Shown here: positions 15,815-57,071 of the stretch, one piece after another
Numbering within the stretch: position 1 is the stretch's first letter
How the letters are laid out: each line of letters begins with the position of its first letter
Assembly: GCF_024298765.1 (NCBI RefSeq)
Contig: NZ_CP101212.1
DNA length: 64,000 nt
Strand: one strand, 5' to 3'
From: Escherichia coli
Lineage (GTDB): Bacteria > Pseudomonadota > Gammaproteobacteria > Enterobacterales > Enterobacteriaceae
Program-made: the position numbers and the translations under genes
Notes under the pieces: generated by a model
What the model was told of the DNA's origin: nothing
Databases searched by the model: none
What the model saw: the letters and a program-made list of their open reading frames with translations, nothing else

Positions 15815-15817
15815 TAT

Positions 15818-36352: not shown

Positions 36353-36365
36353 CCACTACACCTTC

Positions 36366-39300
36366 ATGATAATCATATGCCAGCACCCATCCAGGAGTCA
36401 TGCATCCATAACAATGCGGGACCGGAGCGTGCTGGCTTTTTTGCGGAACGATCCGGCCAGTGGATCGTATTTTACAGACGGAGGAGGCTTAATGCCTGCG
36501 AATCACACTCCCACACCGGCTCAGTCATGGATAGTTCGCCTAGCGCGCGTGTGCTGGGAACGTAAGAAACTTAGTGTCATCGTGGTGGTAGCGTCAGTAT
36601 CGACTATTTTGCTGGCTGCGCTGACGCCACTGCTGACAAGACAGGCTGTGAATGACGCACTGGCGGGCAATCCGGCCCGCCTGCCGTGGCTGGCCTGCGG
36701 GTTACTGTTGATCGCTTTTTTTGATTTCATCGGTAACTATGTGCGCCGTGGTTATGCCGGGATGCTCTCACTCTGGGTGCAGCATACCCTCAGAGGACGG
36801 GTATTCGACAGTATTCAGAAACTTGACGGCGCAGGCCAGGATGCGCTGCGCACCGGGCAGGTGATTTCACGGACCAACAGCGATCTGCAGCAGGTGCATA
36901 CCCTGCTGCAGATGTGCCCGGTGCCGCTGGCAGTGTTCACTTATTACATTGCCGGCATTGCCGTGATGCTGTGGATGTCCCCTGCCATGACGCTTATCGT
37001 CGTGTGCGTACTGGTATGCCTGGCGATCACCGCGCTTCGTGCGCGTCGTAGGGTCTTCGCGCAAACCGGGCTGGCCTCGGACCAACTGGCGAATCTCACC
37101 GAACATATACGCGAGGTGCTGGCACAGATCTCAGTGGTAAAATCCTGTGTGGCAGAGATGCGTGAAACGCACTGGCTCGATAGGCAGTCGCGGCAGATTG
37201 TGCGTGTACGCATCGGTGCGGTTATCTCGCAGGCGATGCCTGGGGCCACCATGCTGGCGCTACCGGTGCTCGGGCAAATCGTCCTGCTGTGCTACGGCGG
37301 GTGGTCGGTCATGCACGGGCGGATCGATCTCGGTACCTTCGTTGCATTCGCCAGCTTCCTCGCGATGCTGACCGGGCCAACCCGCGTACTGGCATCGTTT
37401 CTGGTTATCGCACAGCGCACTCAGGCGTCCGTGGAGCGGGTGTTTGCACTGATCGACACCCGTTCACAGATGGAGGACGGGACGGAGTCGATTAACAGTC
37501 AGGTTGTCGGACTGGAACTGGAGAATATGAGCTTTGACTACCACCATGGCGACAGACATATCCTCAGCGATATCTCCTTTTCCCTGCGCGCCGGTGAAAC
37601 CGTGGCGGTGGTGGGCGCATCGGGTTCAGGAAAATCGACCCTGTTGATGCTGCTGGCGCGTTTTTATGATCCCTGCTCCGGAAAGATATGGCTCAACACC
37701 AGCGAAGGCCGACAAAATCTTCGCGATATCAGACTGGAGGCGCTTCGTCGCCGGGTAGGCATCGTATTTGAAGATGCTTTTCTGTTTGCCGGTACGGTGG
37801 CGGAAAATATCGCCTATGGCCACCCTCAGGCAACGGCGGACGACATTCGCCGTGCGGCAGCTGCTGCAGGAGCCAGCGATTTTATCAACGCCCTGCCGAA
37901 AGGCTTCGATAGCCTGTTAACCGAACGGGGTACGAATCTTTCCGGCGGGCAGAGGCAGCGAATAGCGCTGGCGCGGGCGCTCATTACTGCACCGGACGTG
38001 TTAATCCTGGATGATACCACCTCAGCGGTTGATGCTGTTACGGAAGCGGAGATTAATACCGCGCTGGGTCGCTATGCTGACGAAGGGCATATGCTGCTGG
38101 TGATTGCCCGACGGCGTTCAACACTTCAGCTAGCCAGCCGGGTTGTGGTGCTGGATAAGGGCCGTATGGTGGATACCGGAACCCCGGCAGAACTTGAAGC
38201 GCGCTGTCCGGCGTTCCGCGCACTGATGACCGGCGACAGCGATTTTCTGGCCACGTCCCACAATAGCCACAACGAATTGTGGCCGGCTGAACCAGCGACA
38301 CAAGACGATGTAACGGATACGGGGGATAAAGGTTTTGTCGCCCGTATGACCCGCGTACCGGAAAATGCAGTACAGCAGGCGCTGGCCGGTAAAGGCCGCA
38401 AAGTCACGTCACTACTGAAGCCTGTGGCGTGGATGTTCGTCATCGCCGCTCTGCTGATCGCACTCGATTCTGCGGCAGGCGTAGGGGTGCTGATACTGTT
38501 GCAGCACGGCATTGACTCCGGTGTCGCCGCAGGCGATATGTCGACCATCGGCCTCTGTGCCCTGCTCGCCCTGAGCCTGGTCATTGTGGGCTGGTGCAGT
38601 TATTCTCTGCAGACGGTCTTCGCCGCCAGAGCGGCGGAATCAGTTCAGCATTCGGTGCGCTTGCGCAGCTTCGGCCATATGCTGCGTCTTGGACTCCCCT
38701 GGCATGAAAAGCATGCCGATTCGCGTCTTACCCGCATGACCGTTGATGTGGACTCTCTCGCCCGCTTTCTGCAAAACGGCCTTGCCGGTGCGGCCACCAG
38801 TCTGGTGACGATGTTCGCAATCGCCGCCACCATGTTCTGGCTCGACCCGTTCCTGGCGCTGACGGCATTAAGCGCAGTGCCAGTGGCCGCACTGGCAACC
38901 ATGATTTATCGCCGCCTCAGTACCCCTGCTTATGCACAGGCACGGCTGGAAATAGGCAAAGTCAACAGCACCCTGCAGGAAAAAGTCTCTGGCATGCGTG
39001 TCGTGCAATCGCATGGTCAGCAGGAACTGGAGGGCGCCCGGCTGCGCGCGTTATCGGAGCGTTTCCGCGCAACCCGTGTGCGAGCACAAAAATACCTTGC
39101 AGTCTATTTTCCGTTCCTGACATTCTGCACCGAGGCCTCCTATGCCGCTGTTCTGTTAGTGGGAGCTTCGCAGGTCGCCGCTGGAGAAATGACTGCCGGG
39201 GTACTGGCGGCTTTCTTCCTGTTGCTGGGGCAATTCTATGGGCCAGTGCAGCAGTTATCAGGGATTGTCGACGCCTGGCAGCAGGCGACAGCCAGCGGCA

Positions 39301-40151
39301 AACATATTGATGAACTACTGGCGACAGAAGGCACTGAGAACCTCGGCTCCTCTTCGGTCCTCCCTGTCACCGGTGCACTGCATCTTGATGAGGTCACGTT
39401 CAGTTATCCCGACAGTCACGAGCCAGCTCTGAACAAACTTACCCTGACGATCCCAGAGGGAATGGTTGTTGCGGTCGTCGGTCGCAGCGGTGCGGGTAAG
39501 TCGACGCTGATTAAGCTGATTGCCGGGTTGTATTTCCCCACGCACGGCAACATCAGAATCGGTGTGCAAATGCTCGATGATGCCTCGCTCGCTGAGTATC
39601 GTCGCCAGATTGGGCTTGTCGATCAGGATGTAGCACTGTTTAGTAGTGATATTGCAGAAAACATTCGTTATTCACGGCCATCCGCCACCAATGAAGACGT
39701 TGAAATTGCCTCACAGCGGGCAGGGCTGTATGAGATGGTGTGCAATCTGCCGCAGGGATTCCGGACACCAGTGAATAACGGCGGAGCCGATCTGTCCGCA
39801 GGTCAGCGCCAGTTGATTGCGCTGTCCCGCGCGCAACTGGCTAATGCTCACATCCTGCTGCTCGACGAAGCCACGTCATGTCTGGATCGCACATCCGAAG
39901 AACGACTGATGTCATCGTTAACAGATGTCGTGCATGCCGGGAAGCACTCGGCGCTGATTGTTGCACATCGTCTGACCACCGCGCAACGCTGCGATCTGAT
40001 TGCCGTTATTGATAAGGGGTTACTTGCGGAATACGGAACCCACGAACAGCTGTTATCTGCGGGCGGCCTCTATACCCGCTTATGGCATGACAGCGTCAGC
40101 AGTACTGCGCTCCATCGCCAGCACAACATGAAGGAGGAAACCCCGGGATAG
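36366..40151 (+). CDS. iroC: Salmochelin ABC exporter (fused permease-ATPase, two halves)
   Basis: Two Walker A (GASGSGKST, GRSGAGKST) and two ABC signature motifs; true start may lie downstream of 36366. Confidence 0.85.
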   Translation: MIIICQHPSRSHASITMRDRSVLAFLRNDPASGSYFTDGGGLMPANHTPTPAQSWIVRLARVCWERKKLSVIVVVASVSTILLAALTPLLTRQAVNDALAGNPARLPWLACGLLLIAFFDFIGNYVRRGYAGMLSLWVQHTLRGRVFDSIQKLDGAGQDALRTGQVISRTNSDLQQVHTLLQMCPVPLAVFTYYIAGIAVMLWMSPAMTLIVVCVLVCLAITALRARRRVFAQTGLASDQLANLTEHIREVLAQISVVKSCVAEMRETHWLDRQSRQIVRVRIGAVISQAMPGATMLALPVLGQIVLLCYGGWSVMHGRIDLGTFVAFASFLAMLTGPTRVLASFLVIAQRTQASVERVFALIDTRSQMEDGTESINSQVVGLELENMSFDYHHGDRHILSDISFSLRAGETVAVVGASGSGKSTLLMLLARFYDPCSGKIWLNTSEGRQNLRDIRLEALRRRVGIVFEDAFLFAGTVAENIAYGHPQATADDIRRAAAAAGASDFINALPKGFDSLLTERGTNLSGGQRQRIALARALITAPDVLILDDTTSAVDAVTEAEINTALGRYADEGHMLLVIARRRSTLQLASRVVVLDKGRMVDTGTPAELEARCPAFRALMTGDSDFLATSHNSHNELWPAEPATQDDVTDTGDKGFVARMTRVPENAVQQALAGKGRKVTSLLKPVAWMFVIAALLIALDSAAGVGVLILLQHGIDSGVAAGDMSTIGLCALLALSLVIVGWCSYSLQTVFAARAAESVQHSVRLRSFGHMLRLGLPWHEKHADSRLTRMTVDVDSLARFLQNGLAGAATSLVTMFAIAATMFWLDPFLALTALSAVPVAALATMIYRRLSTPAYAQARLEIGKVNSTLQEKVSGMRVVQSHGQQELEGARLRALSERFRATRVRAQKYLAVYFPFLTFCTEASYAAVLLVGASQVAAGEMTAGVLAAFFLLLGQFYGPVQQLSGIVDAWQQATASGKHIDELLATEGTENLGSSSVLPVTGALHLDEVTFSYPDSHEPALNKLTLTIPEGMVVAVVGRSGAGKSTLIKLIAGLYFPTHGNIRIGVQMLDDASLAEYRRQIGLVDQDVALFSSDIAENIRYSRPSATNEDVEIASQRAGLYEMVCNLPQGFRTPVNNGGADLSAGQRQLIALSRAQLANAHILLLDEATSCLDRTSEERLMSSLTDVVHAGKHSALIVAHRLTTAQRCDLIAVIDKGLLAEYGTHEQLLSAGGLYTRLWHDSVSSTALHRQHNMKEETPG

Positions 40152-40254
40152 TTACTGGACACGTAATGTATTAAAAACACAGTCAGAAGCGGCGGTACCG
40201 TGAATAGCCGCTTTAATTATTTATACTGACATCCTTAATTTTTAAAGAGTATGA

Positions 40255-41484
40255 ATGCTGAACATGCAACAACATCCCTCTGCTATCGCCAGCCTGCGCA
40301 ACCAACTGGCAGCGGGCCACATTGCTAACCTTACTGACTTCTGGCGCGAAGCTGAGTCGCTGAATGTTCCTCTTGTGACGCCAGTCGAAGGAGCGGAAGA
40401 TGAGCGAGAAGTTACCTTTCTGTGGCGCGCCCGACATCCTCTGCAGGGCGTTTATCTGCGTCTGAACCGGGTGACGGATAAAGAGCACGTAGAAAAAGGA
40501 ATGATGAGCGCCCTTCCCGAAACGGATATCTGGACACTGACACTGCGTTTACCCGCAAGTTACTGCGGCTCCTATTCGCTGCTGGAAATCCCCCCCGGCA
40601 CTACGGCTGAGACGATTGCACTGTCCGGAGGCCGTTTTTCCACCCTCGCCGGAAAAGCCGATCCGCTAAACAAAATGCCGGAGATCAACGTTCGGGGGAA
40701 CGCAAAGGAATCAGTGCTGACACTTGATAAAGCTCCCGCCCTGTCGGAATGGAACGGCGGCTTCCACACCGGACAACTGCTTACCTCCATGCGCATTATC
40801 GCCGGGAAATCTCGCCAGATTCGGCTCTATATTCCGGATGTTGATATTTCTCAGCCCCTCGGGCTGGTCGTGCTGCCCGATGGTGAAACCTGGTTTGATC
40901 ACCTTGGCGTATGCGCGGCAATTGACGCCGCCATAAATAACGGGCGCATCGTGCCCGTGGCTGTACTGGGCATTGACAACATTAATGAACATGAACGCAC
41001 TGAGATACTCGGCGGGCGCAGCAAACTGATAAAGGATATCGCCGGACATCTGCTGCCGATGATTCGCGCTGAACAACCGCAGCGTCAGTGGGCAGACCGT
41101 TCGCGCACAGTGCTGGCCGGGCAGAGCCTCGGCGGGATCAGTGCGCTAATGGGGGCTCGTTACGCACCGGAAACGTTCGGTCTGGTGCTCAGCCACTCTC
41201 CTTCAATGTGGTGGACGCCAGAAAGAACCAGTCGACCAGGCTTGTTCAGCGAAACCGATACCTCATGGGTGAGTGAGCATCTGCTTTCTGCCCCACCGCA
41301 GGGCGTACGTATCAGCCTGTGCGTGGGATCGCTGGAAGGTTCGACAGTGCCTCACGTTCAGCAGCTTCACCAGCGGCTGATTACCGCTGGCGTCGAAAGC
41401 CATTGCGCAATTTACACCGGTGGTCACGATTACGCATGGTGGCGCGGTGCACTGATTGACGGGATTGGTTTACTACAGGGTTGA
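40255..41484 (+). CDS. iroD: Salmochelin/enterobactin esterase
   Basis: 409 aa Fes-like esterase with GQSLGG serine motif. Confidence 0.85.
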   Translation: MLNMQQHPSAIASLRNQLAAGHIANLTDFWREAESLNVPLVTPVEGAEDEREVTFLWRARHPLQGVYLRLNRVTDKEHVEKGMMSALPETDIWTLTLRLPASYCGSYSLLEIPPGTTAETIALSGGRFSTLAGKADPLNKMPEINVRGNAKESVLTLDKAPALSEWNGGFHTGQLLTSMRIIAGKSRQIRLYIPDVDISQPLGLVVLPDGETWFDHLGVCAAIDAAINNGRIVPVAVLGIDNINEHERTEILGGRSKLIKDIAGHLLPMIRAEQPQRQWADRSRTVLAGQSLGGISALMGARYAPETFGLVLSHSPSMWWTPERTSRPGLFSETDTSWVSEHLLSAPPQGVRISLCVGSLEGSTVPHVQQLHQRLITAGVESHCAIYTGGHDYAWWRGALIDGIGLLQG

Positions 41485-41568
41485 GTTGACCCACAAACAC
41501 TTTCAGGAAACGGTACAGACTTCCCGAATAAATCAAATTGTCACCTGCGGAAAAGGAATAATCATCAG

Positions 41569-42525
41569 ATGTATGCCCGCGAGTATCGCTCAACACGCCC
41601 GCATAAAGCGATTTTCTTTCATCTTTCTTGCCTCACCCTTATCTGTAGTGCGCAAGTTTATGCGAAGCCGGATATGCGGCCACTGGGGCCGAATATAGCC
41701 GATAAAGGCTCCGTGTTTTACCATTTCAGCACCACCTCTTTCGACTCTGTCGATGGCACACGCCATTATCGGGTATGGACGGCCGTGCCGAATACAACCG
41801 CACCGGCATCGGGTTACCCGATTTTATATATGCTTGACGGTAACGCAGTTATGGACCGCCTGGATGACGAACTGCTCAAACAATTGTCAGAAAAAACACC
41901 GCCAGTGATCGTGGCTGTCGGGTATCAGACCAACCTCCCTTTCGATCTCAACAGCAGGGCTTACGACTATACGCCAGCAGCAGAAAGCAGAAAAACAGAT
42001 CTCCACTCAGGGCGTTTTAGCCGTAAGAGTGGTGGCAGCAACAACTTCCGCCAGTTACTGGAAACGCGTATTGCCCCAAAAGTGGAACAGGGACTGAATA
42101 TCGATCGGCAACGCCGCGGCTTATGGGGGCACTCCTACGGCGGCCTCTTCGTGCTGGATTCCTGGCTGTCCTCCTCTTACTTCCGGTCGTACTACAGTGC
42201 CAGCCCGTCGTTGGGCAGAGGTTATGATGCTTTGCTAAGCCGCGTTACGGCGGTTGAGCCTCTGCAATTCTGCGCCAAACACCTGGCGATAATGGAAGGC
42301 TCGGCGACACAGGGTGATAACCGGGAAACGCATGCTGTCGGGGTGCTGTCGAAAATTCATACCACCCTCACTATACTGAAAGATAAAGGCGTCAATGTCG
42401 TATTTTGGGATTTCCCCAACTTGGGACACGGGCCGATGTTCAATGCCTCCTTTCGCCAGGCACTGTTAGATATCAGTGGTGAAAACGCAAATTACACAGC
42501 AGGTTGTCATGAGTTAAGCCACTAA
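41569..42525 (+). CDS. iroE: Periplasmic salmochelin esterase
   Basis: 318 aa alpha/beta hydrolase with GHSYGG motif. Confidence 0.8.
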   Translation: MYAREYRSTRPHKAIFFHLSCLTLICSAQVYAKPDMRPLGPNIADKGSVFYHFSTTSFDSVDGTRHYRVWTAVPNTTAPASGYPILYMLDGNAVMDRLDDELLKQLSEKTPPVIVAVGYQTNLPFDLNSRAYDYTPAAESRKTDLHSGRFSRKSGGSNNFRQLLETRIAPKVEQGLNIDRQRRGLWGHSYGGLFVLDSWLSSSYFRSYYSASPSLGRGYDALLSRVTAVEPLQFCAKHLAIMEGSATQGDNRETHAVGVLSKIHTTLTILKDKGVNVVFWDFPNLGHGPMFNASFRQALLDISGENANYTAGCHELSH

Positions 42526-42528
42526 ACA

Positions 42529-42550
42529 CTGCCCGCTTTTACGCGGGCAG
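42529..42550. terminator. Bidirectional hairpin terminator between convergent iroE and iroN
   Basis: ctgcccgc-tttta-gcgggcag hairpin. Confidence 0.5.
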
Positions 42551-42569
42551 TACGCCTGAAACACTACGA

Positions 42570-44747
42570 TCAGAATGATGCGGTAACTCCGGCATAGTAA
42601 GCCCGGCCTGGCTCGTTATAGGTATTCGCCCCTTCAGAAGATCGGAAGATCTGTTTATTGAGGATATTACTGACGCCGACATTAAGACGCAGATTTTTAT
42701 TAATATCGTAATTGAAGTTCGTCCCCACCAGTGAATAAGCGCCCAGCTCTTTACCTGACAGACCGCCAGTATCTTCACTGCGGGTTTCCGCATGAGTACG
42801 CGGTTTTTGTCTGCCATATAACGTCCAGTTGACGCTGGCAGAAAACGCCTGGGTGATGGTCCAGTTAAGCGAGTTATTGATAGTATATTTCGGGATGACC
42901 GACAGAGGATTACCGGTGTCTTTTTGCTCCGAAGTGATCATCCATGTGGCATTGGTATTCCAGTTCAGACGATCTTTCACCAGTGGGAAAGACATACTGG
43001 CTTCGATACCGTCCACCAGAGCTTTCCCGCCATTCTGCCACTTGAGGATATATGCGCCTGAAGCGGTTTGCCCGATAACGTTATCCCCGGCCACGATCTT
43101 ATTCTGGTAATCATTGCGGAAGTAGGTCACACTTGCGTGGTAATCTTCCCAGGTGAACTCCAGCCCAATTTCTTTATTGACGCTGATTTCCGGATCGAGA
43201 TCTTTATTACCGATCAGGTAGCACCCGCCTGATGTAATATCTTTTGGACAGCCATTGCCTTTCGAGTAGAGCAGATAGCCTTCACTGGATTGATACAGGT
43301 TTGGGGCTTTAAAGGTTCGGGCAACCCCTGCTTTGACTTTGAAATAATCGCCCAATTCCTGCGAAAGATTCAGACTGGGGCTGAAGTTCCCGCCGGAGTC
43401 GCTGAGATAATCAAAGCGCAGGCCGGGAATGATATTCGTGCCAGGAACCGGCTCAATGTTATCTTCAATATACAGCGCACTGATTTGAGAATGATTTTTA
43501 CTGCTGCGATCCGCAGCAGAGCCAGAAATACCGCTGATATCACTGTCATTCACCGTCAGGCTGGTAGAGGAAGGATCATCGAGCTTATCGCGGTTCCACT
43601 CTGCACCAACGGTCAGCGTTTGATCAACCATCACATTCAAAGGAATATTAAGCTCGCCGCTGGTTCGCCAGGAACTCAGGCGATTGGTCGTAAACTTTTC
43701 ACCCGCTAAAATACGCCCTTCACCACCGCCGGATAATCCTTCATTCATGCGGGTATTATTGGTTTTCTCGTAATAAACACCAAAGCGACTTTGTCCCCAG
43801 TCCCAGATACCATTATGCGTAATGCCATAATTCTGTCGGTACAGGCGGTTCGTCTCTTTGCCGGATTTTGCCAGGCTTTCGGTAACTGCACTGGAAGAAC
43901 TGTTTTGCGTATCGCCCGCATAGATATTCCCCTGGCGGCTATATCCGGCTTCGAAATCGAGAATCTGCTGCGGATTTAATTTCCACGAGACAACGCCGTT
44001 AATATCTTTGTTACGTACCCCTTCATGCCCGGCTGCGTTTTTCGTACCGACCGGAGAATTAATATCCCAACTGTCAGCATCCGTTTTATTCAGGTTACCA
44101 TACAAACGCGTGGTAAGAGCATTACCAGCCAGAGGCCCACTAAGGCTGAAATTGGCGCGACGCGTAGCGCCCTCATCGCTACTTTCCGGCTGATTGGTGT
44201 ATAACGACAGCGAACCGTGCCAGTCGTTGGTGGGACGTTTGGTAATGATGTTCACCACCCCCCCGGCTGCCCCCGAACCGTAGCGCGCCGCCGCAGGGCC
44301 GCGGATCACTTCAATACGCTCAACCTGTTCCGGTGGCACCCAGTTGGTGTCACCGCGGGTATCACGCTCTCCACGCCAGCTATAACGCACGGAGTTACGT
44401 GACGTCACCGGTACACCATCAATTAAAATTAAGGTGTTTTCCGGCCCCATACCACGAATATCGATCTGGCGGTTGTTACCGCGTGTGCCCGAGGCGCTAT
44501 TGCCGGTAAGATTGACGCCAGGCATTTTACGAATAATATCTGAAAGGTCGTTTACCGGAGGGGTCTTTTTAATATCCTCGCTGGTAATAACCGACACGCC
44601 CGGCTGCTGTTTTAATACCTGCTCAGCGGTGGCTTCCACCACCAGAGTCTCGTCATTATCATCGTCGGAGGATTTGGCTACTGATACCTGGCTATTCAAC
44701 CCAACCAGGAGCACAGTTAGCGACCAGAGGATTTTGTTAATTCTCAT
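42570..44747 (-). CDS. iroN: TonB-dependent salmochelin outer-membrane receptor
   Basis: 725 aa with TonB box region and terminal F; recognised as IroN. Confidence 0.9.
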   Translation of the reverse strand: MRINKILWSLTVLLVGLNSQVSVAKSSDDDNDETLVVEATAEQVLKQQPGVSVITSEDIKKTPPVNDLSDIIRKMPGVNLTGNSASGTRGNNRQIDIRGMGPENTLILIDGVPVTSRNSVRYSWRGERDTRGDTNWVPPEQVERIEVIRGPAAARYGSGAAGGVVNIITKRPTNDWHGSLSLYTNQPESSDEGATRRANFSLSGPLAGNALTTRLYGNLNKTDADSWDINSPVGTKNAAGHEGVRNKDINGVVSWKLNPQQILDFEAGYSRQGNIYAGDTQNSSSSAVTESLAKSGKETNRLYRQNYGITHNGIWDWGQSRFGVYYEKTNNTRMNEGLSGGGEGRILAGEKFTTNRLSSWRTSGELNIPLNVMVDQTLTVGAEWNRDKLDDPSSTSLTVNDSDISGISGSAADRSSKNHSQISALYIEDNIEPVPGTNIIPGLRFDYLSDSGGNFSPSLNLSQELGDYFKVKAGVARTFKAPNLYQSSEGYLLYSKGNGCPKDITSGGCYLIGNKDLDPEISVNKEIGLEFTWEDYHASVTYFRNDYQNKIVAGDNVIGQTASGAYILKWQNGGKALVDGIEASMSFPLVKDRLNWNTNATWMITSEQKDTGNPLSVIPKYTINNSLNWTITQAFSASVNWTLYGRQKPRTHAETRSEDTGGLSGKELGAYSLVGTNFNYDINKNLRLNVGVSNILNKQIFRSSEGANTYNEPGRAYYAGVTASF

Positions 44748-44843
44748 ACCTATTCCCTAATAAATGCCTAACTTAAAATGTTTGATCGTTAAGCTCACAT
44801 CCTTGCCAGATATTTCTTACTGCCATTATTGTTTTTATATAAG

Positions 44844-44864
44844 AATGATAATTAATATCATTTA
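44844..44864. promoter_or_regulatory. Fur-box-like sequence in the iroN promoter
   Basis: gaatgataattaatatcattt about 100 bp upstream of the iroN start. Confidence 0.45.
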
Positions 44865-45612
44865 GTAAAAGAAAAAGCAATCCCTCACAAGATACATATA
44901 TTGATTTTTCATAAATATCAAATTGATATATAACATATGTTTTTTATTTCATTGCACTTGTCGATCATCGGGAATTTTGTCACAATTTCTCACGGATAGT
45001 GTTCACATTGTTTCTGACCTGCATTTCAGGCGCGGGCGCTGCTTATGTATATAAGGGCCTGTGGTCGACGAATCAGCATAATCAGATCTTCCTGCGAACA
45101 ATTTCTTTCAGCGTATCAGGCAGCACTATCGGATTATCTACGAGCGTTTTTGATTCACATTGTGTGTGAAACTTCATACATCATGATTCGCTTTCCCTAC
45201 TCAGTTCTGATGATTGTTTTTTATTCTATTAACACGGAGTTAAGATTCTACCCTCGGTGTCCTCATTATTAATGAGGAATGCTACCTATCTAAAAACTGA
45301 CCGAAACTTTGGGGCATCCCTGGAGGTTTCCAAGGAGAAAAAGGTGACAGTGATAGTGCCACATTGTGAGGAAATTCCTGAGAAACTCCTGAGAAACTCC
45401 TGGTTCACACACATAATTCAGGAGCTTGCCATAGATAGTAACCAATTGTTTTATATTTTAAGACCATTAAATACGCGGCTACGATAGCGCTTTATATAAT
45501 CATAAACTGTAGAGATAAAATATCTGCTTCTCTGATAACACTAATTGAGTGTCTTAAACTAAGTAATTTCATTTTTCCCCCTTTAAAAGCAATATATGTG
45601 CAATAGTTGAAG

Positions 45613-46647
45613 TTAAAGCTGTGCTGCCAGAGTTGATAATAATTGTTCTGTCTGTTGCCATGATATGCATTCATCAGTAACAGACTGACCATACTCTAGC
45701 GGAAAACTATCGGATTGTTTTCCATCTTGTAAAAAGCTTTCCACCATAATGCCAGCTACATATCCTGGTATTTTTTTCCGATTATCTATAACTTGACGTG
45801 CAACGGAAATTTGCCGTTTAGCCACTTTACCGCTATTACCATGGCTACAATCAATTATCAGACGATGGTTAATGCCCTCATCATGCATTAATTTCACTGC
45901 CTTAGTTATATCAGACAAACCATAGTTAGGTTCTCTACCTCCACGTAATATTAGATGTCCATGTGGATTGCCATCGGTTAATAGTGTAGATATACTATTT
46001 GTTAAAGATGTCATATATACAATATGTTGTTCACGGGCTGCAATAATAGCGTCAATAGCTAAGTTAATATTTCCATCAGTACTGTTTTTAAATCCAACTG
46101 GACAATGTAAACCAGACGCAAGTTGACGATGCGTTTGTGATTCAGTGGTTCTGGCACCAATAGCACCCCAACATATTAAATCAGCAATATAGGGAGTAAG
46201 AAAAGGATCGAGGAATTCTGTAGCGGTTGCGACACGCATCGTTGTGATTGAAGACAAACACTGGCGAGCATATCGTATCCCTTTCTCAACATCATAACTT
46301 CCATTTAGATCAGGATCGTGCATTATTCCCTTCCAGCCTTTACGGGTTCGAGGTTTCTCAAAATAAGTGCGCATTACAATGTACATTTTCGATAAGTACT
46401 TATTCTGTAATACGAACAATCGCTTCGCATAATCAACTGCGGCCTGAACGTCATGGATTGAGCATGGACCAACAATCACAAGTAAGCGAGGATCTTTTCC
46501 CAGCAAAATATTCGCTATAATATCTCGTTGCAGAGAGATCCATGTTACGGTTTCTTCCGATACTGCGATTTCTTTATGAATCTCGCCCACAGTGGGTAAA
46601 CTGCCAAGCAACTTCCCGCGGTAGATTAATTTACTAGCTGACTGCAT
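45613..46647 (-). CDS. 3-deoxy-7-phosphoheptulonate (DAHP) synthase, class I AroF/G/H-like, divergent
   Basis: 344 aa with conserved GPCSIHD, KPRT, GARTTESQTHR, DCSHGNS motifs; visibly AT-rich codon usage. Confidence 0.85.
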   Translation of the reverse strand: MQSASKLIYRGKLLGSLPTVGEIHKEIAVSEETVTWISLQRDIIANILLGKDPRLLVIVGPCSIHDVQAAVDYAKRLFVLQNKYLSKMYIVMRTYFEKPRTRKGWKGIMHDPDLNGSYDVEKGIRYARQCLSSITTMRVATATEFLDPFLTPYIADLICWGAIGARTTESQTHRQLASGLHCPVGFKNSTDGNINLAIDAIIAAREQHIVYMTSLTNSISTLLTDGNPHGHLILRGGREPNYGLSDITKAVKLMHDEGINHRLIIDCSHGNSGKVAKRQISVARQVIDNRKKIPGYVAGIMVESFLQDGKQSDSFPLEYGQSVTDECISWQQTEQLLSTLAAQL

Positions 46648-46696
46648 CTTGTCTCCTAAAAGCGCTATTTCAGACCATCAGTTGCACACAGTAGAT

Positions 46697-46715
46697 GATA
46701 ATGATAATCATTTAC
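46697..46715. promoter_or_regulatory. Near-consensus Fur box upstream of the DAHP synthase gene
   Basis: gataatgataatcatttac against consensus GATAATGATAATCATTATC; about 50 bp upstream of the start. Confidence 0.5.
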
Positions 46716-46855
46716 TGTATAATTGGCAATATATGGGGATTCATAGTCATTTCTGAGATAATATACGTTAGGCCTTCTCTCCCGTACGGAAATCACTTGT
46801 TTTCCGTAAATTACCTGAATCTTAATCCCTGAGCTGCGGCGGTAATGACTCCAAC

Positions 46856-47359
46856 TTATTGATAGTGTTTTATGTTCAGATAATGCCCGATGACTTTGTC
46901 ATGCAGCTCCACCGATTTTGAGAACGACAGCGACTTCCGTCCCAGCCGTGCCAGGTGCTGCCTCAGATTCAGGTTATGCCGCTCAATTCGCTGCGTATAT
47001 CGCTTGCTGATTACGTGCAGCTTTCCCTTCAGGCGGGATTCATACAGCGGCCAGCCATCCGTCATCCATATCACCACGTCAAAGGGTGACAGCAGGCTCA
47101 TAAGACGCCCCAGCGTCGCCATAGTGCGTTCACCGAATACGTGCGCAACAACCGTCTTCCGGAGCCTGTCATACGCGTAAAACAGCCAGCGCTGGCGCGA
47201 TTTAGCCCCGACGTATCCCCACTGTTCGTCCATTTCCGCGCAGACGATGACGTCACTGCCCGGCTGTATGCGCGAGGTTACCGACTGCGGCCTGAGTTTT
47301 TTAAATGGCGGAAAATCGTGTTGAGGCCAACGCCCATAATGCGGGCGGTTGCCCGGCAT
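46856..47359 (-). CDS. insB: IS1 InsB
   Basis: 167 aa. Confidence 0.85.
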
Positions 47360-47553
47360 CCAACGCCATTCATGGCCATATCAATGATTTTCTGGTGCGT
47401 ACCGGGTTGAGAAGCGGTGTAAGTGAACTGCAGTTGCCATGTTTTACGGCAGTGAGAGCAGAGATAGCGCTGATGTCCGGCGGTGCTTTTGCCGTTACGC
47501 ACCACCCCGTCAGTAGCTGAACAGGAGGGACAGCTGATAGAAACAGAAGCCAC
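47278..47553 (-). CDS. insA: IS1 InsA
   Basis: 91 aa. Confidence 0.85.
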
Positions 47554-47801
47554 TGGAGCACCTCAAAAACACCATCATACACTAAATCAGTAAGTTGGCA
47601 GCATCACCGGAACTTCAAAACTGCGCAAAACACGCAAATACGCACAAGAAAGTAGGGCTGCGCTTGGAATTCGGAAAATAAACCACATCAAAACTACTTT
47701 TTAGCCAAATAACGTTTGGGAATCACCAGAATGGTGGGACAACAGCGGTTTTAGTGCCCTAAATCGTACGTTTTCATCCAGTTGCCCCTCAAACCCCATG
47801 T

Positions 47802-48134
47802 TCAAGTCAGAATAGTGGACAGGCGGCCAAGAACTTCGTTCATGATAGTCTCCGGAACCCGTTCGAGTCGTTTTCCGCCCCGTGCTTTCATATCAATTGT
47901 CCGGGGTTGATCGCAACGTACAACACCTGTGGTACGTATGCCAACACCATCCAACGACACCGCAAAGCCGGCAGTGCGGGCAAAATTGCCTCCGCTGGTT
48001 ACGGGCACAACAACAGGCAGGCGGGTCACGCGATTAAAGGCCGCCGGTGTGACAATCAGCACCGGCCGCGTTCCCTGCTGCTCATGACCTGCGGTAGGAT
48101 CAAGCGAGACAAGCCAGATTTCCCCTCTTTCCAT
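47802..48134 (-). CDS. pemK: PemK/Kid (MazF-family) toxin
   Basis: 110 aa from MERGEIWLVSLDPTAGHEQQGTRPVLIV...; track ORF is extended upstream. Confidence 0.85.
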   Translation of the reverse strand: MERGEIWLVSLDPTAGHEQQGTRPVLIVTPAAFNRVTRLPVVVPVTSGGNFARTAGFAVSLDGVGIRTTGVVRCDQPRTIDMKARGGKRLERVPETIMNEVLGRLSTILT

Positions 48135-48135
48135 G

Positions 48136-48393
48136 TCAGATTTCCTCCTGACCAGTCGCCGGTGCATCCAGCCATTCTCGTTCTTCAGCTGATATTTCAG
48201 CATTCGGATCACACTGTGCCAGTAGCTCAGCCAGTGAATATTGCGGGCGTCTGTACGGCTCAACAATCAGCCGGCCATTATCAATGACCATGCCAACTTC
48301 ATTATCTGTGCCCAGAGACAGCGCATTCAGCAGTGCCGGTGGGACGGTCAGCATAACTGAGCCGCCAACCCTCTTCAGTCGGGTGGTATGCAT
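48136..48393 (-). CDS. pemI: PemI/Kis antitoxin
   Basis: 85 aa MHTTRLKRVGGSVMLTVPPALLNALSLG...; adjacent to pemK. Confidence 0.85.
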   Translation of the reverse strand: MHTTRLKRVGGSVMLTVPPALLNALSLGTDNEVGMVIDNGRLIVEPYRRPQYSLAELLAQCDPNAEISAEEREWLDAPATGQEEI

Positions 48394-48485
48394 TCTTCAC
48401 CTCCATAAAAGTTATATTTAAATATAACATCCACTAAAAAAACACACCAGGCTTTAACGCACAATGTTTAATAAAAATATAACTT

Positions 48486-49139
48486 TCAACCAAACAGTAA
48501 ACCCAGCGTGGTTGCTTCCATATGCAGCAATACCGGCAGCAGCAGGCCACCACTTCTGATCCTGGCCACTGATGTAATCAACCCCACCAGGAACAGTTCT
48601 GCCAGTGTCAGCAGGTTCTGATACTGGCTGTGCGCGGCGACGAACAACAACGACGTTATCAGCGCCCCCAGCCACATCGTCCAGCAGTACCGTGAACGGA
48701 AGACGTTCAGCATAATCCCCCGGAACAGCGTTTCCTCATTCAACGGGGCAAGGATAAAGATGGTCAGCAACGTCAGGATCACGTCAGGTATGGACTTATC
48801 GGCAAAAAGTTTCGTCATAAATGGCTCAGCAGGCAGAGCCAGCGCCTTACCGAGCAGAAATACACCGACATACACCACGGCCATCGCACCGACCAGCCAC
48901 GGTACGCCAACGTTGCGCAGCTGACCAACGACCGGTAGCGGAGCTATCCAACGGCGGTATACCAGGAAAACACACAGCAGGTACATCAGAACAGTACCAT
49001 GACTGAAGAACAAATAGTTTTTTCCTGATCCATAAAGCAGAACGGCCTGCTCCATGACAAATCTGGCTCCCCAACTAATGCCCCATGCAGCCAGCATAAC
49101 CAGCATAAACTGCAGATATTGATTACGTGTTTGAATCAT
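48486..49139 (-). CDS. CPBP-family (Abi/CAAX-protease-like) membrane protein at the position of R100 tir
   Basis: 217 aa multi-TM protein with EETLFRG and HSQYQ motifs; lies between ori/repA4 region and pemI as tir does in R100. Confidence 0.55.
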   Translation of the reverse strand: MIQTRNQYLQFMLVMLAAWGISWGARFVMEQAVLLYGSGKNYLFFSHGTVLMYLLCVFLVYRRWIAPLPVVGQLRNVGVPWLVGAMAVVYVGVFLLGKALALPAEPFMTKLFADKSIPDVILTLLTIFILAPLNEETLFRGIMLNVFRSRYCWTMWLGALITSLLFVAAHSQYQNLLTLAELFLVGLITSVARIRSGGLLLPVLLHMEATTLGLLFG

Positions 49140-49850
49140 TGCATCGCCTGTAAATTTTTAACTTGTCCTATTTTTGTCATTACCACGTATATACACATGT
49201 ATAACAATTCAGATATCGTTACCAGGATATGCCGCATCAGCGGCATGGAAGGCGGCACTCTGTTGTTTCATATGATACAGGAGTAAAACCGCCGAAGCCC
49301 GGCGTAAGCCGGTACTGATTGATAGATTTCACCTTACCCATCCCCAGCCCTGCCAGACCATACCCGCTTTCAGCCATGAGAGAGCTTCTGTGCGCGGTCG
49401 GAGTGGTCCCGACGAGGGTTTACCCGAAGTCGGGGCGTATCTCCGCGTTAGCGGGCCGTGAGGGCCGCTTACGAGCGTGTACTGAGAACTTCCAGCGAGA
49501 AGACTGACAGCGATGAAGATGTAGTTACAACATTCATAATTAAAAGCGACTCTGTTCCGGCCCGAAGGGCCGGGGCGGGGCCGCTTTTCAGTTATGAGGG
49601 AGGGGCTTTGTGGTTTCAGTTCTGCGCTGGTTCGGGGTTTTTCTGGAGGTTGGTTTTGTGTGTTGTAACTAAAGTGGCTCCGGTTGGGGCCCGCCGTTTA
49701 CGGTGGGAGGTGCATATCTGTCTGTCCACAGGACAGGCAGTGAATAGGTTTTCTTTTTAAATGAATGTAATTAAGTAGTTTAAAGGAGATATAAACAGGT
49801 GTTTAAAAGATACATTGCACCCTGTAAGGGGTCAGTTTGGATATCGAAAA

Positions 49851-52800
49851 TTATTGTACGTTAAGGCTGTTTTTTGACCTTTCGACTTTAGCTGGTCTTA
49901 GCCGACGAAACTTACCAGAAGCCGGTATCCGGTTGCTTTTCCAGATATAATCACCTGTCAGATTGATGTGTTCCCAGCCCAACGGCGACAAATGCGACAG
50001 CAGTTGCTCGTTGATCTTCACCCCTTTACGCTTCAGGGCATCGACCGCTCTTTCCATATAGACGGTATTCCACAGGGATATGGCAGCCGTCAGCAGCGTC
50101 AGTCCACTGGCGCGATAGCTCTGATTTTCCGGTTTTCTGTCCCTGATTTCTCCCAGTCGGTGCATAAATACCGCACGCGCCAGCGCGTTACGGGCTTCGC
50201 CTTTATTCAGCCCCGCCTGTACCCGCCGACGCAGAGCCGGGTCGCGGAACCAGTCGAGCATAAACAGGGTTCGCTCAATGCGGCCAATTTCTCTCAGTGC
50301 TTTGGCAAGTCCGTTTTGCTTGGGATAGCTGGCAAGCTTTTTCAGCATCAGGGATGCCGTCACGGTTCCCTGCTTTATCGAGGTTGCCAGACGCAGCACT
50401 TCACGCCAGTGGATTTCGATCTCTTTCAGATTCAGGCTGGTCGTTGATATCAGTGACTGAAGCGCCGGGTATTTCTCTGCTTTCCCTTTGATAAACAGTT
50501 TTTTGTCGTGGAGATCCCTGATTCGCGGACAGAACGCAAATCCCAACAGATGCATCAGGGCAAAGACATGATCGGTGAAACCAGCGGTATCGGTGTAATG
50601 TTCCCTGATTTCCAGGTCGCTTTCGTGGTACAGCAAGCCATCGAGAACATGGGTTGAATCCCTGACCCGACTGATTATGCAGGTGTAAAACGGGCTGTAT
50701 TGATCCGAAATATGGGTATAAAACTGACGTCCAGGCTCTTGCCCATATTTCGGGTTAACCTGCCCTGCGTAGCGGCCTGAGCTGCCGGTTCTGAAATTTT
50801 GTCCATCTGATGATGACGTTGTTCCGTCTCCCCAAAATGCCGCCAACGGTCTTTTCCCCTGCGCATTTACCAGCTCTGCAAGAGCGGCTGAATAGGTTTC
50901 GTCACGGATGTACCATGCCTGAATATCTTCGAGTGATGATTTGGTGCTCCCGGGGCAGGCTTCTGCCATTTTGGTCAGGCCAAGATTGATGCCATCCGCA
51001 AGAATGGTGGTGAGGAGCAAGCGGGTATCGGGACGGGTAATGTCATTTTTTATATGCGAAAAATGTCGGGTAAACGTCGTCCAGCTGTTTACCTCATCGA
51101 GAATTTCCGTGATTTTAGGTCGCGGTAGCATGCTGTAAACCAGCTCTGCCAGCGGTGAAACCTGCGCCGGAACGCAGTTATCCAGCGGAGAGACTTTTAC
51201 GCCCCTGTCGGATATTTCCACATCGGGCAGTTCACCAAGGGCAGCCATGGCATTGACCTCTTCAAGTCTGGACTGAAGCAGGGTCATACGGCTGGTAATG
51301 TACTCATGATAATCAGCAGATACGGGCAGTGGCAGTGCCGGTGTGAGTTTGTCAAAGTCCTTCTCGGGTATGAGGTAATCATCAAAATTTTTGTAGCGGC
51401 GCGAGCCTTTAACCCAGATATCCCCGGAGCGCAACGCCCCCTTAAGCTCGCTGAGTGCACAAAACTCATAGTACTGCCGGTCAATACCCACAGGTGTAAT
51501 CACCACCTTGCGCCAGCTTTCAGGGACAAACTCAAGCGGCGCTGCCGCCGGAACTTTACGTGACTGCTTCCGGTACATATCCTTGATCACAACCAGTGCA
51601 TCAGCCAGAGGTTGCGCTGCCGGGGTTGCGACTAACTGTAAAGCGGACAACATGCGTGGGGCATATTTCCGTAATGTGCTGTATTTCTCGGTAATAATAT
51701 GCAGCGGGTCAAAATTATTTTTTCTGGCGAGATGGCGTGTTTCATCCAGACTGGCGACAAATTCAGCCCATGGGAGTATGTTTTCTATTGCGAGCCAGGG
51801 ATCGCCACCGGAATCACGGGCATCAGACAGCGCCTGACCGACATCGATGTACTGCCTCAGTTTTGACTGGATCAGCTTTCCGGTCTGCTGAAGGCGCTCA
51901 GCCTGTGTTCGTTTGGCTTTGCTGAAAAGACTATTCAGCATTCGCTCATGCAGCTCAATCACTTCGTCTGTCAGTGTGGCTCTGGCTTCTTCCAGCACGC
52001 ACACCAGGATCGCATGACGCCGGGCAGCTGAAAATCGGGTCAAATCCCGGCTACTCATCTTTCGGCCTTCCCGCGCCAGTTTCAGCAACCGGTTCTGGTG
52101 AATGGTACGATCTATACCTTCAGGTAATGCCAGCGATTCAATGCTGCTGAGCCGATCAAGATGTTGCAGCACGTTCTTACCATTGATTTTACCCGGCGGT
52201 TGCAGAAGCCATGTCAGCCTGGAAGGCTGATTATCTGATGACTCAAGTAAATGATCCAGGGCATCCCTGTGAGCCGGAGTTAACGGGGCATTCAGGGTCT
52301 GAAATACGATTTTATCGCCGCCTGCCATGACTTCAGCACAGGTACGCTCCACGACATCAATCGCGGGGATTATCACGTTGTTCTGCCGGAGATAGACAAG
52401 TAACTCTTCGGCTAGGAGAATGCCTTTATCGGTGCGCGTCGCCATCGATAACAGGTGCGTAATACAGTCCTGCTGTATTTTGCCGGTGAACGCCTTTACG
52501 CCAAGATAGCGGTACAGTTCGGTTAAATGCTCACGCCGGGTCGTATCCCGGCCGGAAAGGTAAGCAGGCCAGAGATCCCCGGTAAGCTTTAGCCTGCTGG
52601 CGATATGCTTCAGCAGCGCATCAGAGGGAGAGATTTTTTTATCCGGGGCAAAGCCGACATTTTTCAGATAGCAAAGAAGGACGGCAAAACCAAAACGGCT
52701 GGCGGGTTTACGGTGAGCACTGATAAGCGCCAGATCATGCTCACTGAAATAGGCCATTCGGGTCAGCGTTAACTCATCGTCCGGTAATGCCAGTAATGAT

Positions 52801-52880
52801 TCTCTTTCCGACAGAGAAAGAATCTGCCTCCTTGCCATATAGTTTTCCTCATAAATTATTCGATGCGTTATTTTTAACAA
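49851..52880 (-). CDS. tnpA: Tn3-family transposase TnpA
   Basis: 1009 aa; C-terminal region with GDGTTSSSDGQ...HYTDTAGFTDHVFAL motifs; 3' end runs into the IR. Confidence 0.85.
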   Translation of the reverse strand: MLKITHRIIYEENYMARRQILSLSERESLLALPDDELTLTRMAYFSEHDLALISAHRKPASRFGFAVLLCYLKNVGFAPDKKISPSDALLKHIASRLKLTGDLWPAYLSGRDTTRREHLTELYRYLGVKAFTGKIQQDCITHLLSMATRTDKGILLAEELLVYLRQNNVIIPAIDVVERTCAEVMAGGDKIVFQTLNAPLTPAHRDALDHLLESSDNQPSRLTWLLQPPGKINGKNVLQHLDRLSSIESLALPEGIDRTIHQNRLLKLAREGRKMSSRDLTRFSAARRHAILVCVLEEARATLTDEVIELHERMLNSLFSKAKRTQAERLQQTGKLIQSKLRQYIDVGQALSDARDSGGDPWLAIENILPWAEFVASLDETRHLARKNNFDPLHIITEKYSTLRKYAPRMLSALQLVATPAAQPLADALVVIKDMYRKQSRKVPAAAPLEFVPESWRKVVITPVGIDRQYYEFCALSELKGALRSGDIWVKGSRRYKNFDDYLIPEKDFDKLTPALPLPVSADYHEYITSRMTLLQSRLEEVNAMAALGELPDVEISDRGVKVSPLDNCVPAQVSPLAELVYSMLPRPKITEILDEVNSWTTFTRHFSHIKNDITRPDTRLLLTTILADGINLGLTKMAEACPGSTKSSLEDIQAWYIRDETYSAALAELVNAQGKRPLAAFWGDGTTSSSDGQNFRTGSSGRYAGQVNPKYGQEPGRQFYTHISDQYSPFYTCIISRVRDSTHVLDGLLYHESDLEIREHYTDTAGFTDHVFALMHLLGFAFCPRIRDLHDKKLFIKGKAEKYPALQSLISTTSLNLKEIEIHWREVLRLATSIKQGTVTASLMLKKLASYPKQNGLAKALREIGRIERTLFMLDWFRDPALRRRVQAGLNKGEARNALARAVFMHRLGEIRDRKPENQSYRASGLTLLTAAISLWNTVYMERAVDALKRKGVKINEQLLSHLSPLGWEHINLTGDYIWKSNRIPASGKFRRLRPAKVERSKNSLNVQ

Positions 52881-53099
52881 AAATGGTTATCGCATAAGGG
52901 TATACCCTGACACCATAATCTAAACGTGACGGCACACAATGAACGACATAGCCTATATGCGATAGATTAAATGCAATAACCTAAATGCGGTAATGCGGTG
53001 AAAAAATGTTCATCAGCACTTATTTAAGGGCATAGACGGAAGATCAGTTCACCGATCGGGCAAAAGAGATGCTGGAGCAGTTTGTTTAGGAGCGGGGGC

Positions 53100-53410
53100 A
53101 TAAAATAGCCAGTTACTACCGGGAGAATATCAGCGGTACAAAACTTGACCGACCGGAACTGGGTCGCTTACTGATGGACAGTCACCGCAATGATATTTTG
53201 CTGGTCGAGCAAATTGACCGCCAGCGCCAAAAGCAGGGAGTTGAACTCGCACATACGCTGGGTAAATATCAGGGAAAACAGGTCGCTCAGGAACGGCATC
53301 AAAAGGTACTTTACTACCGGCAGGTCAAGAAAGAAACGGCAGATGCAACAGGGTACAGCACCTCCCAGATATGCCACATTCAGGCACTGTACCGACAATC
53401 AGAATCATGA
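53100..53410 (+). pseudogene. Serine resolvase (tnpR) remnant
   Basis: Fragmentary translation ...DSHRNDILLVEQIDRQRQ... resembles resolvase core but no intact ORF. Confidence 0.35.
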
Positions 53411-53537
53411 GACTTTGGTTAAGCAGGTATGCAGAGCAGAATTTATAATCTATTTCATTCAGACTGATTAAATGGATTACAGAAGCTAAAGGGTCTTCTT
53501 TGTTCAACATGAAACCAGAAGACCCTTACTATTATTA

Positions 53538-54373
53538 TTAAAAAAGCAATTGGGTCAGATACCCCATAAGTATGGCCATACCCAGGATTACTGTCAGAAA
53601 AGCGACTATCATAGGCATTCTGAACATTGATTTAAGCAGTATTACTTCTGTCAAACTCGCTCCAGCACTACCGATTATCAAGGCCATTAATGCCCCCAGG
53701 CCCATTCCTTTAGTCATCAGCACTGATGCAAGTGGTATCACTGCCTCTGCGCGGATATACAACGGAATACCAACAACTGCACTCAGCGGTATGGCTAAGG
53801 GATTATCTGCTCCGGCATGAGCTGCAATCCACTCTGAAGGGATAAAGCCATAAATAAATGAACCTATTAATACACTTAACAAAAGATAAGGCAGAACATC
53901 CTTAAACTGCTGTAAGGCATCTTTCATAGCTAACTTTATTGGGCCAGAGGTGGTATTCGTTGTGAGATTCACATTGCCCAGATTCTCGCTGCTGCAACAG
54001 CTAACAGCTGGTTGTTCAGATGATATTGATGAACAACACGCTGATACGTTCTGCTCGTTCTTTACCGTCCTTAAGTTAATTATGGGGTTCGCTGATGAAG
54101 TACAGCAACTCGTTTTTAAAGGCAATTGAGTCGAGCTAGTGCTGCAACAACTGGAACCCGCCGACGTTTTTACCGAAGCTTCGGAATCATCGCATTTCGT
54201 GGTGCAACCACTTGATGCTGAGTTTTTGTGATCAACAATATGACGTTCAAATCCTAGTAAATCCAATACGATACTGGCAAGGACTGAGACACCGGCAGCG
54301 ATGATCGCGTACAACAAAGTTACTTTCCAGCCAAAGGTAACCCACATTAACCCCACGATAATGGGATTAAGCG
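53538..54373 (-). pseudogene. ArsP-like permease, C-terminal part (downstream of IS66 insertion)
   Basis: Continues in frame from the N-terminal part across the 8-bp duplication (…SPLLN|PIIVGLMWVTFG…); contains a Cys/Ser-rich loop with repeated vicinal CC. Confidence 0.55.
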
Positions 54374-54402
54374 TAAGCGGCTCGTCAGAACCGTATTGAT
54401 AT

Positions 54403-55974: not shown

Positions 55975-55993
55975 ATCCTCACTTTACAACGGG

Positions 55994-57018: not shown

Positions 57019-57071
57019 TATTTTTGTAGAGCCGGAGGAAACAGACCAGACGGTTTAAATGAGCCGGTTAC

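Follow-up and report, generated by a model that had tools for sequence, protein, structure and literature searches.

The window analysed here, a stretch of 64,000 nucleotides of Escherichia coli DNA, carries at 45613..46647 on the minus strand a coding sequence of 344 amino acids (stop codon included in the coordinates) for a class I-alpha DAHP synthase, which corresponds to WP_001190234.1 and is referred to as ssbL for the reasons given below. In the list of open reading frames, the frame opens at the earliest possible start codon after the upstream stop, and a Shine-Dalgarno sequence, AGGAG, was read from the sequence at 46657..46653 (minus strand), 5 nt before the ATG. The downstream neighbor of ssbL, at a distance of 865 bp, is iroN (42570..44747, minus strand), which encodes the salmochelin receptor; the original prediction had placed the gene next to the salmochelin locus, and this was confirmed. 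The genes iroB, iroC, iroD, and iroE, located at about 35189..42525 on the plus strand, encode the salmochelin glucosyltransferase, exporter, and esterases, and the iroBCDE products depend on the catechol precursor fed by ssbL. Transcription of ssbL and iroN as one operon was considered less likely, because the 865-bp gap contains a terminator-like hairpin at 45362..45344 and iroN has its own Fur-like site at 44841..44859, which is weaker than the box of ssbL.

On the upstream side, the synteny with plasmid pS88 stops at an IS1 copy (46841..47608), 194 nt before the ssbL ATG. This insertion leaves the ssbL promoter and Fur box intact. Beyond IS1, a ChpB/MazF-type toxin-antitoxin pair, a Tn3-family transposase, two IS66 copies, and an IncFII repA were found.

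Identity of the gene with pS88 ssbL

The protein encoded in the window was identical to that of ORF 123 (ssbL) of pS88 (pECOS88, NC_011747.1) at 344/344 amino acids. At the nucleotide level, 1033 of the 1035 positions agreed with NC_011747.1 97964..98998, both differences being synonymous, and the 193 nt upstream of the ATG, which include the Fur box, were also identical. In pS88, a 3-deoxy-7-phosphoheptulonate synthase gene is found just upstream of iroN. Likewise, the gene in the window has iroN downstream of it, belongs to the conserved virulence plasmidic region, and is preceded by a Fur-box-like sequence. Based on the complete protein identity, the location, and the Fur box, we therefore concluded that the gene is ssbL, a published gene of ColV-type IncF virulence plasmids.

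The similarity to pS88 extends well beyond the gene. Positions 30667..46840 aligned collinearly, with 99.5% identity, to the iss-iro-ssbL region of pS88, and 1..46840 as a whole was collinear with its conserved virulence region (RepFIB, ompT/hlyF, ets, iss, iroBCDEN, and ssbL) at 97-99.9% identity. This collinearity is broken by two gaps, 9448..11717 and 23036..30666, the latter of which holds a short matching block at 28090..29411. The two loci thus share the protein, the 5' region with the Fur box, and the place upstream of iroN, but differ farther upstream, where pS88 has a DUF6404 gene, yacAB, and the cva operon, whereas the window has IS1.

The properties of this gene have been described previously. 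Lemaitre et al. (2012) reported that no other pS88 gene was induced as strongly as ORF 123, whose expression rose by a factor of more than 100 in iron-depleted LB, in human serum, and in urine (PMC3438092). In the same study, its product was found to be 45-50% identical to the three isozymes of K-12, and the gene to lie just upstream of iroN behind a Fur-box-like sequence; it occurred only in genomes with iro, CFT073 (c1220) and 536 carrying it on the chromosome, and was proposed as an ancillary iron-acquisition gene (PMC3438092). According to later summaries of work published in 2014 (J Bacteriol 196:1343), ssbL raises the output of salmochelin, yersiniabactin, and enterobactin via the shikimate pathway (PMC6918656, PMC4723317). 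The same summaries describe ssbL as an auxiliary virulence factor and the ssbL mutant as making less siderophore (PMC6918656, PMC4723317). The gene and its role are hence already known, from 2012-2014 for the identical gene and from 2013-2020 for the chromosomal allele. Because the identical gene was published in 2012-2014, finding ssbL here adds nothing new in itself. The original prediction had implied novelty and had itself named a widely characterised plasmid gene as the outcome that would speak against it; the comparison with pS88 and the literature showed that the gene is of this kind, a known ColV-type plasmid gene with a product 100% identical to that of pS88 ORF 123.

Active site, promoter, and alleles of ssbL

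The SsbL sequence matched the Pfam family DAHP_synth_1 (PF00793) with an E value of 9.1e-76 over residues 41-337, covering model positions 8-269 of 270, and scored 420.3 bits against TIGR00034 (aroFGH), for which the cut-off is 173.2, placing SsbL within the family. The best relatives of solved structure were the N. meningitidis DAHPS (E about 1e-99), followed by E. coli AroF and AroG. The metal ligands were kept as C62, H269, E303, and D325 (C61, H268, E302, and D326 in AroG), as were the residues binding PEP and E4P, namely R93, K98, R100, R166, K187, and R235 (R92, K97, R99, R165, K186, and R234 in AroG). All 10 catalytic, metal-binding, and PEP-binding residues of AroG were conserved in SsbL. 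These results indicated that SsbL is a class I (type I-alpha) DAHP synthase with an intact active site, and we infer that it is catalytically active in vitro. The class I motifs that the original prediction had seen in the frame were thus recovered by both family models and by the residue comparison.

E. coli AroH, AroF, and AroG are the Trp-, Tyr-, and Phe-sensitive DAHP synthases, respectively. SsbL resembles them in its Pfam and TIGR family, in its length class with an N-terminal extension, and in the identity of the catalytic, metal-binding, and PEP-binding residues. However, the alignment gave identities of only 44.5% to AroF, 43.4% to AroG, and 48.8% to AroH of K-12, and the ssbL promoter carries a Fur box. 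The base composition also differs: the GC content of ssbL is 39.9% (GC3, 29%), against 52-53% (GC3, 50-57%) for aroF, aroG, and aroH, and that of the whole window is 49%. The frame had been described at the outset as divergent, AT-rich, and no recent copy of aroF, aroG, or aroH, which agrees with these values. With the isozyme-specific NCBIfam models for AroH and AroG (NF009396 and NF006723), SsbL scored 442.1 and 362, below the respective cut-offs of 463 and 568. Since SsbL fell below both curated cut-offs and formed a separate clade in the neighbor-joining (NJ) tree described below, it was not regarded as an orthologue of AroH or AroG. No relevant paper was found in a literature search on the enzymology or feedback behavior of SsbL or of other DAHP synthases linked to siderophores; Lemaitre et al. 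(2014) may discuss these properties.

The Fur box of ssbL, GATAATGATAATCATTTAC, is located at 46697..46715, 49 nt before the ATG, and matches the consensus GATAATGATAATCATTATC at 17 of 19 positions. A near-consensus box about 50 bp before the start codon had been predicted, and the Fur-site scan substantiated it. When up to three mismatches to the consensus were allowed, the window gave five matches at three sites, compared with a chance expectation of 0.02 per window obtained from dinucleotide-preserving shuffles, and the ssbL box, with two mismatches, was the best of them. A consensus scan proposed a sigma-70-like promoter at 46701..46729 (minus strand), with a -35 element TTGCCA (46729..46724), a 17-nt spacer, and a -10 element TATCAT (46706..46701). 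This candidate promoter matches the consensus at 10 of 12 positions, and the number of promoter matches in the region was not above that in shuffled sequence. The Fur box spans the -10 element of the predicted promoter together with 9 nt of its spacer, and such a box over a putative -10 element is the classical arrangement for Fur repression. ssbL accordingly shows the sequence feature by which members of the Fur regulon are recognised, a near-consensus box overlapping the predicted promoter, and Fur probably binds to the plasmid ssbL promoter. The interval of the original prediction ended at 46720 and included the Fur box, with the -35 element lying a few bases beyond.

Comparison with the chromosomal allele of strain Nissle 1917 supported the predicted elements. 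A 19-nt block over the core of the Fur box, TAAATGATTATCATTATCA, was perfectly conserved between the plasmid and Nissle alleles while its flanks had diverged, and the -35 element was kept in the chromosomal allele, where it is nearer to the consensus (TTGTCA). Farther upstream, a second conserved block of 21 nt, TTACGGAAAACAAGTGATTTC, was found at 46789..46809 (minus strand; feature 46785..46809). This block overlaps an 8-bp inverted repeat with arms at 46785..46792 and 46801..46808 and may be another regulatory site. In an Rfam scan, the ssbL locus gave nothing credible, the single match being to a snoRNA at chance level (E 0.39), indicating that no known riboswitch or leader RNA is present at ssbL.

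The chromosomal ssbL (c1220), carried on the serX island of CFT073, 536, and Nissle 1917, resembles the plasmid gene in length, Fur-box core, and -35 region. Unlike the plasmid gene, it lies beside microcin H47 genes, 20-30 kb from iro. The protein identity between SsbL of the window and the Nissle allele was 93.6%, and the DNA identity to the chromosomal allele was about 90% over the gene and its flanks. The plasmid and Nissle alleles differed at 69 nucleotides and 22 residues, and their dN/dS of 0.12 indicated purifying selection on ssbL. The CFT073 allele c1220 belongs to the direct Fur regulon (PMC7157518); it was also picked up by TraDIS, and co-infection confirmed that the mutant was less fit in spleen and liver (PMC3855560).

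With a query from which IS1 was omitted, ssbL was detected in 623 of the 5426 complete E. coli genomes, 451 times on plasmids and 188 times on chromosomes. The records comprised 438 that were at least 99% identical to the query and 182 that were 90-95% identical; the chromosomal copies among the matches listed (n = 8, Nissle 1917 included) were about 90% identical. The same kind of query, again omitting IS1, found ssbL on 387 PLSDB plasmids, of which 360 were from Escherichia, 17 from Salmonella, 8 from Klebsiella, and 2 from Shigella, and all but one of the matches listed were annotated as 3-deoxy-7-phosphoheptulonate synthase. One plasmid, CP099238.1, was rearranged and had IS1 between ssbL and iro.

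Relatives of SsbL and the inhibitor pocket

A search of 5.8 billion proteins returned few close relatives of SsbL. The closest, with 70% identity, were from Citrobacter amalonaticus and Morganellaceae, followed by three sequences with 59-68% identity and by proteins of Vibrionaceae, Shimwellia, and others with 50-55% identity; ordinary AroH orthologues ranked beneath these at 50-52%. In an NJ tree, the 36 proteins with Pro at the position of AroG residue 151 formed a single clade apart from AroH, AroG, and AroF, where the tree carries no bootstrap values, the sample is biased to top matches, and Pro151 itself was used to define the group. The Vibrio vulnificus, V. fluvialis, Veronia, Shimwellia, Citrobacter, and Morganellaceae genes share with ssbL their place in this clade, with 50-70% identity, Pro at position 151, and a residue other than Ser at position 180.

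The genomic context was surveyed for eight members, consisting of seven relatives and the E. coli gene itself. Siderophore-type genes adjoined the DAHP synthase gene in all eight, and catechol genes resembling EntA, EntB, EntC, or EntE in four. The V. vulnificus and V. fluvialis genes adjoin genes for NRPS condensation and adenylation functions, an EntA-like dehydrogenase, an EntC-like isochorismate synthase, an EntE-like ligase, and an EntB-like isochorismatase, and the Veronia pacifica gene adjoins EntA- and EntC-like genes. An isochorismate synthase gene neighbors that of Shimwellia, and NRPS genes, FecCD-type uptake genes, and a TonB-dependent receptor gene neighbor that of C. amalonaticus. 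In the two Morganellaceae loci, a TonB-dependent receptor gene and NRPS genes were located about 3 kb off. The DAHP synthase genes of the relatives sit inside a biosynthetic cluster, whereas E. coli ssbL sits beside iro, a locus for tailoring, export, and uptake, with ent elsewhere on the chromosome.

Fur-like boxes of varying strength were present upstream in all eight members: 18/19 at 74 nt in Veronia, 17/19 at 47 nt in V. vulnificus, 16/19 at 54 nt in V. fluvialis, 16/19 at 226 nt in Shimwellia, and 14/19 at 39 nt in Citrobacter and Morganellaceae. The placement of SsbL in an apparently monophyletic clade of siderophore-linked DAHP synthases, as judged from these comparisons, is a modest addition to what was known.

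The residues of the inhibitor pocket, which is located at an interface between subunits, differed between AroG and SsbL at P150 (T151 in SsbL), Q151 (P152), S180 (H181), F209 (V210), and S211 (M212), and SsbL therefore lacks the residue pattern expected for effector binding of the AroF, AroG, or AroH type. The conserved residues Q151 and S180 of AroG (Q152 and S181 of AroF) are in contact with the bound inhibitor through its main chain, and P150L, S180F, F209A, and other substitutions give feedback-resistant AroG (PMC9529685). Every member of the SsbL clade had Pro at position 151 and a residue other than Ser at position 180. In the AroH-like group, the mean entropy of the eleven pocket positions was 0.06 against an average of 0.56 (P = 0.0008, permutation), whereas the pocket positions of the SsbL clade were no more conserved than the background (1.25 and 1.24, respectively). 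The catalytic residues were invariant in both the AroH-like group and the 36-member SsbL clade.

An effector pocket that is not conserved in the SsbL clade fits a loss of amino-acid feedback control, and the divergence of the pocket suggests an escape from inhibition by Phe, Tyr, and Trp. We tentatively propose, with slightly more doubt than confidence, that SsbL represents, in E. coli, a separate fourth clade of type I-alpha enzymes that is sister to AroH, occurs next to siderophore genes with Fur boxes in Enterobacterales and Vibrionaceae, and would have an effector pocket freed from constraint (position 151 being always Pro and the positions of Ser180, Phe209, and Ser211 varying freely), so that the enzyme would escape feedback by Phe, Tyr, and Trp.

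Probable role of ssbL in siderophore supply

Here, we consider it very probable that ssbL encodes an auxiliary fourth DAHP synthase isozyme that is repressed by Fur and raises the supply of chorismate for catechol siderophores. When iron is sufficient, Fe2+-Fur would occupy the box over the -10 element and keep ssbL off; when iron is limiting, Fur would leave and ssbL would be strongly transcribed. SsbL would then condense phosphoenolpyruvate and erythrose-4-phosphate to DAHP, and the extra DAHP would increase the flux through the shikimate pathway and yield more chorismate. Chorismate would in turn be converted to the 2,3-dihydroxybenzoate and salicylate that are built into enterobactin, salmochelin, and yersiniabactin, and the neighboring iro genes would glucosylate, export, and take up the product. 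In the present analysis, this model draws on the identity of the gene, its active site, the Fur box that covers the predicted promoter, the linkage to iro, the purifying selection, and the prevalence of ssbL. Lemaitre et al. (2014) reportedly found that chorismate restores the wild-type phenotype. Iron induction, the Fur dependence of the chromosomal allele, and the lower siderophore output and virulence of the mutant come from the literature. The original prediction that an iron-regulated copy would raise the supply of catechol precursor matches what has been published for the identical gene (PMC3438092) and the summaries of the later work (PMC6918656, PMC4723317).

Two known systems offer partial parallels. 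The gene shiF next to iucABCD-iutA (pS88 and SHI-2) is likewise a Fur-controlled auxiliary gene that is linked to a siderophore locus and raises its output, but it encodes an unrelated MFS transporter and the siderophore concerned is aerobactin. PhzC of phenazine operons is, like SsbL, an extra DAHP synthase linked to a cluster and supplies chorismate independently of amino-acid control. Unlike SsbL, it is a type II DAHP synthase of another sequence family and is not controlled by Fur.

Since the product of SsbL feeds a common pathway, the flux cannot be reserved for siderophores alone, and SsbL might instead serve as a general back-up for the synthesis of aromatic amino acids, folate, and quinones when iron limitation cripples the iron-dependent chromosomal DAHP synthases, replacing these enzymes and not boosting siderophores. 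The E. coli DAHP synthases are generally known to be metalloenzymes, and a paralogue released from Fur repression could stand in for isozymes starved of metal. However, the Cys, His, Glu, and Asp metal ligands of SsbL are those of AroG and give no sign of a different metal requirement, and the neighbors of all eight sampled members are siderophore-type rather than aromatic amino acid genes, four of them being beside genes for catechol biosynthesis. The restriction of the gene to genomes carrying iro (PMC3438092) and the lower siderophore output of the mutant, as summarised in PMC6918656 and PMC4723317, also argue against a back-up function, which we regard as improbable. Another conceivable client for the chorismate is the group of catechol-modified siderophore-microcins (MccH47 and MccM), in which case the plasmid ssbL would be a relic of that link: in Nissle, the allele and the microcin H47 genes mchB, mchI, and mchF are about 3 kb apart, and microcin H47 maturation genes are among the Fur targets (PMC7157518). 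Microcins are nevertheless very unlikely to be the main client, given that the neighbors in the window and in pS88 are iroBCDEN and not mch, that the more distant relatives lie in plain siderophore-type clusters, and that the phenotype summarised from the published work concerns secreted siderophores (PMC6918656, PMC4723317). Colicin V, moreover, is not known to be catechol-modified.

We also considered that the Fur match might be fortuitous, or that ssbL might be a decaying, functionless passenger of the virulence region. The region is AT-rich, resemblance to the Fur consensus is commoner in such DNA, and the promoter scan was not enriched over shuffled sequence. Against this stand a site with two mismatches where 0.02 matches were expected at up to three mismatches, the conserved 19-nt block TAAATGATTATCATTATCA, the dN/dS of 0.12, the full set of intact catalytic residues, and the published iron-dependent induction of more than 100-fold (PMC3438092). 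This explanation, to which we give hardly any credence, is for practical purposes refuted.

[quoted passage not shown] An escape of SsbL from feedback would explain why a fourth isozyme is carried, since host fluids rich in amino acids would shut down the three chromosomal enzymes at the very time when the cell needs catechol siderophores. Feedback insensitivity, if true, would give the fourth isozyme a mechanistic reason, and SsbL-type enzymes might then offer metabolic engineering a DAHP synthase that is feedback-resistant by nature.

SsbL relatives in other genera

Relatives of SsbL, the DAHP synthase encoded by ssbL, were sampled from Citrobacter amalonaticus (locus L007), Morganellaceae (L008 and L009), Veronia pacifica (L010), Vibrio vulnificus (L012), Shimwellia (L013), and V. 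fluvialis (L014), and their identities to SsbL were 50–70%. These proteins formed one clade, in which Pro replaces the inhibitor-contacting Gln151 of AroG. Siderophore-type genes of one kind or another (NRPS, EntA/B/C/E-like, TonB receptor, or FecCD) neighbored the DAHP synthase gene at every sampled locus, and Fur-like boxes were located 5' of every sampled gene.

Fur-like boxes and other elements around ssbL

Further Fur-like boxes were identified in the window. Two overlapping boxes, each matching 16 of the 19 consensus positions, lie approximately 400 nt upstream of iroB (34771..34795), and a weaker box (44841..44859), with a 15/19 match, precedes the iroN ATG by 93 nt. Hence, iroB and iroN appear to have their own predicted Fur sites, distinct from that of ssbL. 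At 32562..32583, an orphan promoter-like TTGACA is directly followed by the box GAAAATGATAATCACTGTC on the minus strand, with a 16/19 match; a match as good as this is expected by chance 0.02 times per window. This site, equivalent to approximately position 112000 of pS88, has an integrase pseudogene on one side and a fragment of a phage Rz gene on the other, and no obvious gene was found downstream of it.

The plasmid ssbL and the approximately 90%-identical chromosomal allele of strain Nissle share, without a single mismatch, a 21-nt block, TTACGGAAAACAAGTGATTTC, approximately 140 nt 5' of the ATG, whereas the flanking DNA has diverged. An 8-bp inverted repeat (TACGGAAA / TTTCCGTA) overlaps this block (together 46785..46809, minus strand). 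The block occurs once in the window and had no match in Rfam. It is a candidate for a second regulatory site. On the other side of the gene, the iroN–ssbL spacer contains a tandem duplication of the 11-nt unit CCTGAGAAACT (45377..45398), with a terminator-like hairpin just downstream (45362..45344, minus strand).

Genomic surroundings of the plasmid and chromosomal alleles

Synteny with pS88 stops 194 nt upstream of ssbL, at an IS1 copy (46841..47608). Past this point, pS88 carries yacAB and the colicin V (cva/cvi) genes. In contrast, positions 46841..64000 of the window carry a toxin–antitoxin pair (47802..48393; the toxin is ChpB/MazF-like and the antitoxin MazE-like), an unassigned, membrane-like 217-aa ORF, a transposase of the Tn3 family (49851..52880), two copies of IS66, a further IS1 (approximately 57850..58621), and an IncFII repA (61646..62518). 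Because of this difference in content, the ColV operon may be absent from its usual place on this plasmid.

In E. coli Nissle (L003 1..9082, chromosome NZ_CP148105.1), approximately 3 kb separates the chromosomal ssbL allele from the microcin H47 genes, comprising mchB, mchI, mchF, and an HlyD-type gene. Microcin H47 is a siderophore-microcin with a catechol moiety; therefore, it could be a further consumer of the extra chorismate derived from ssbL.
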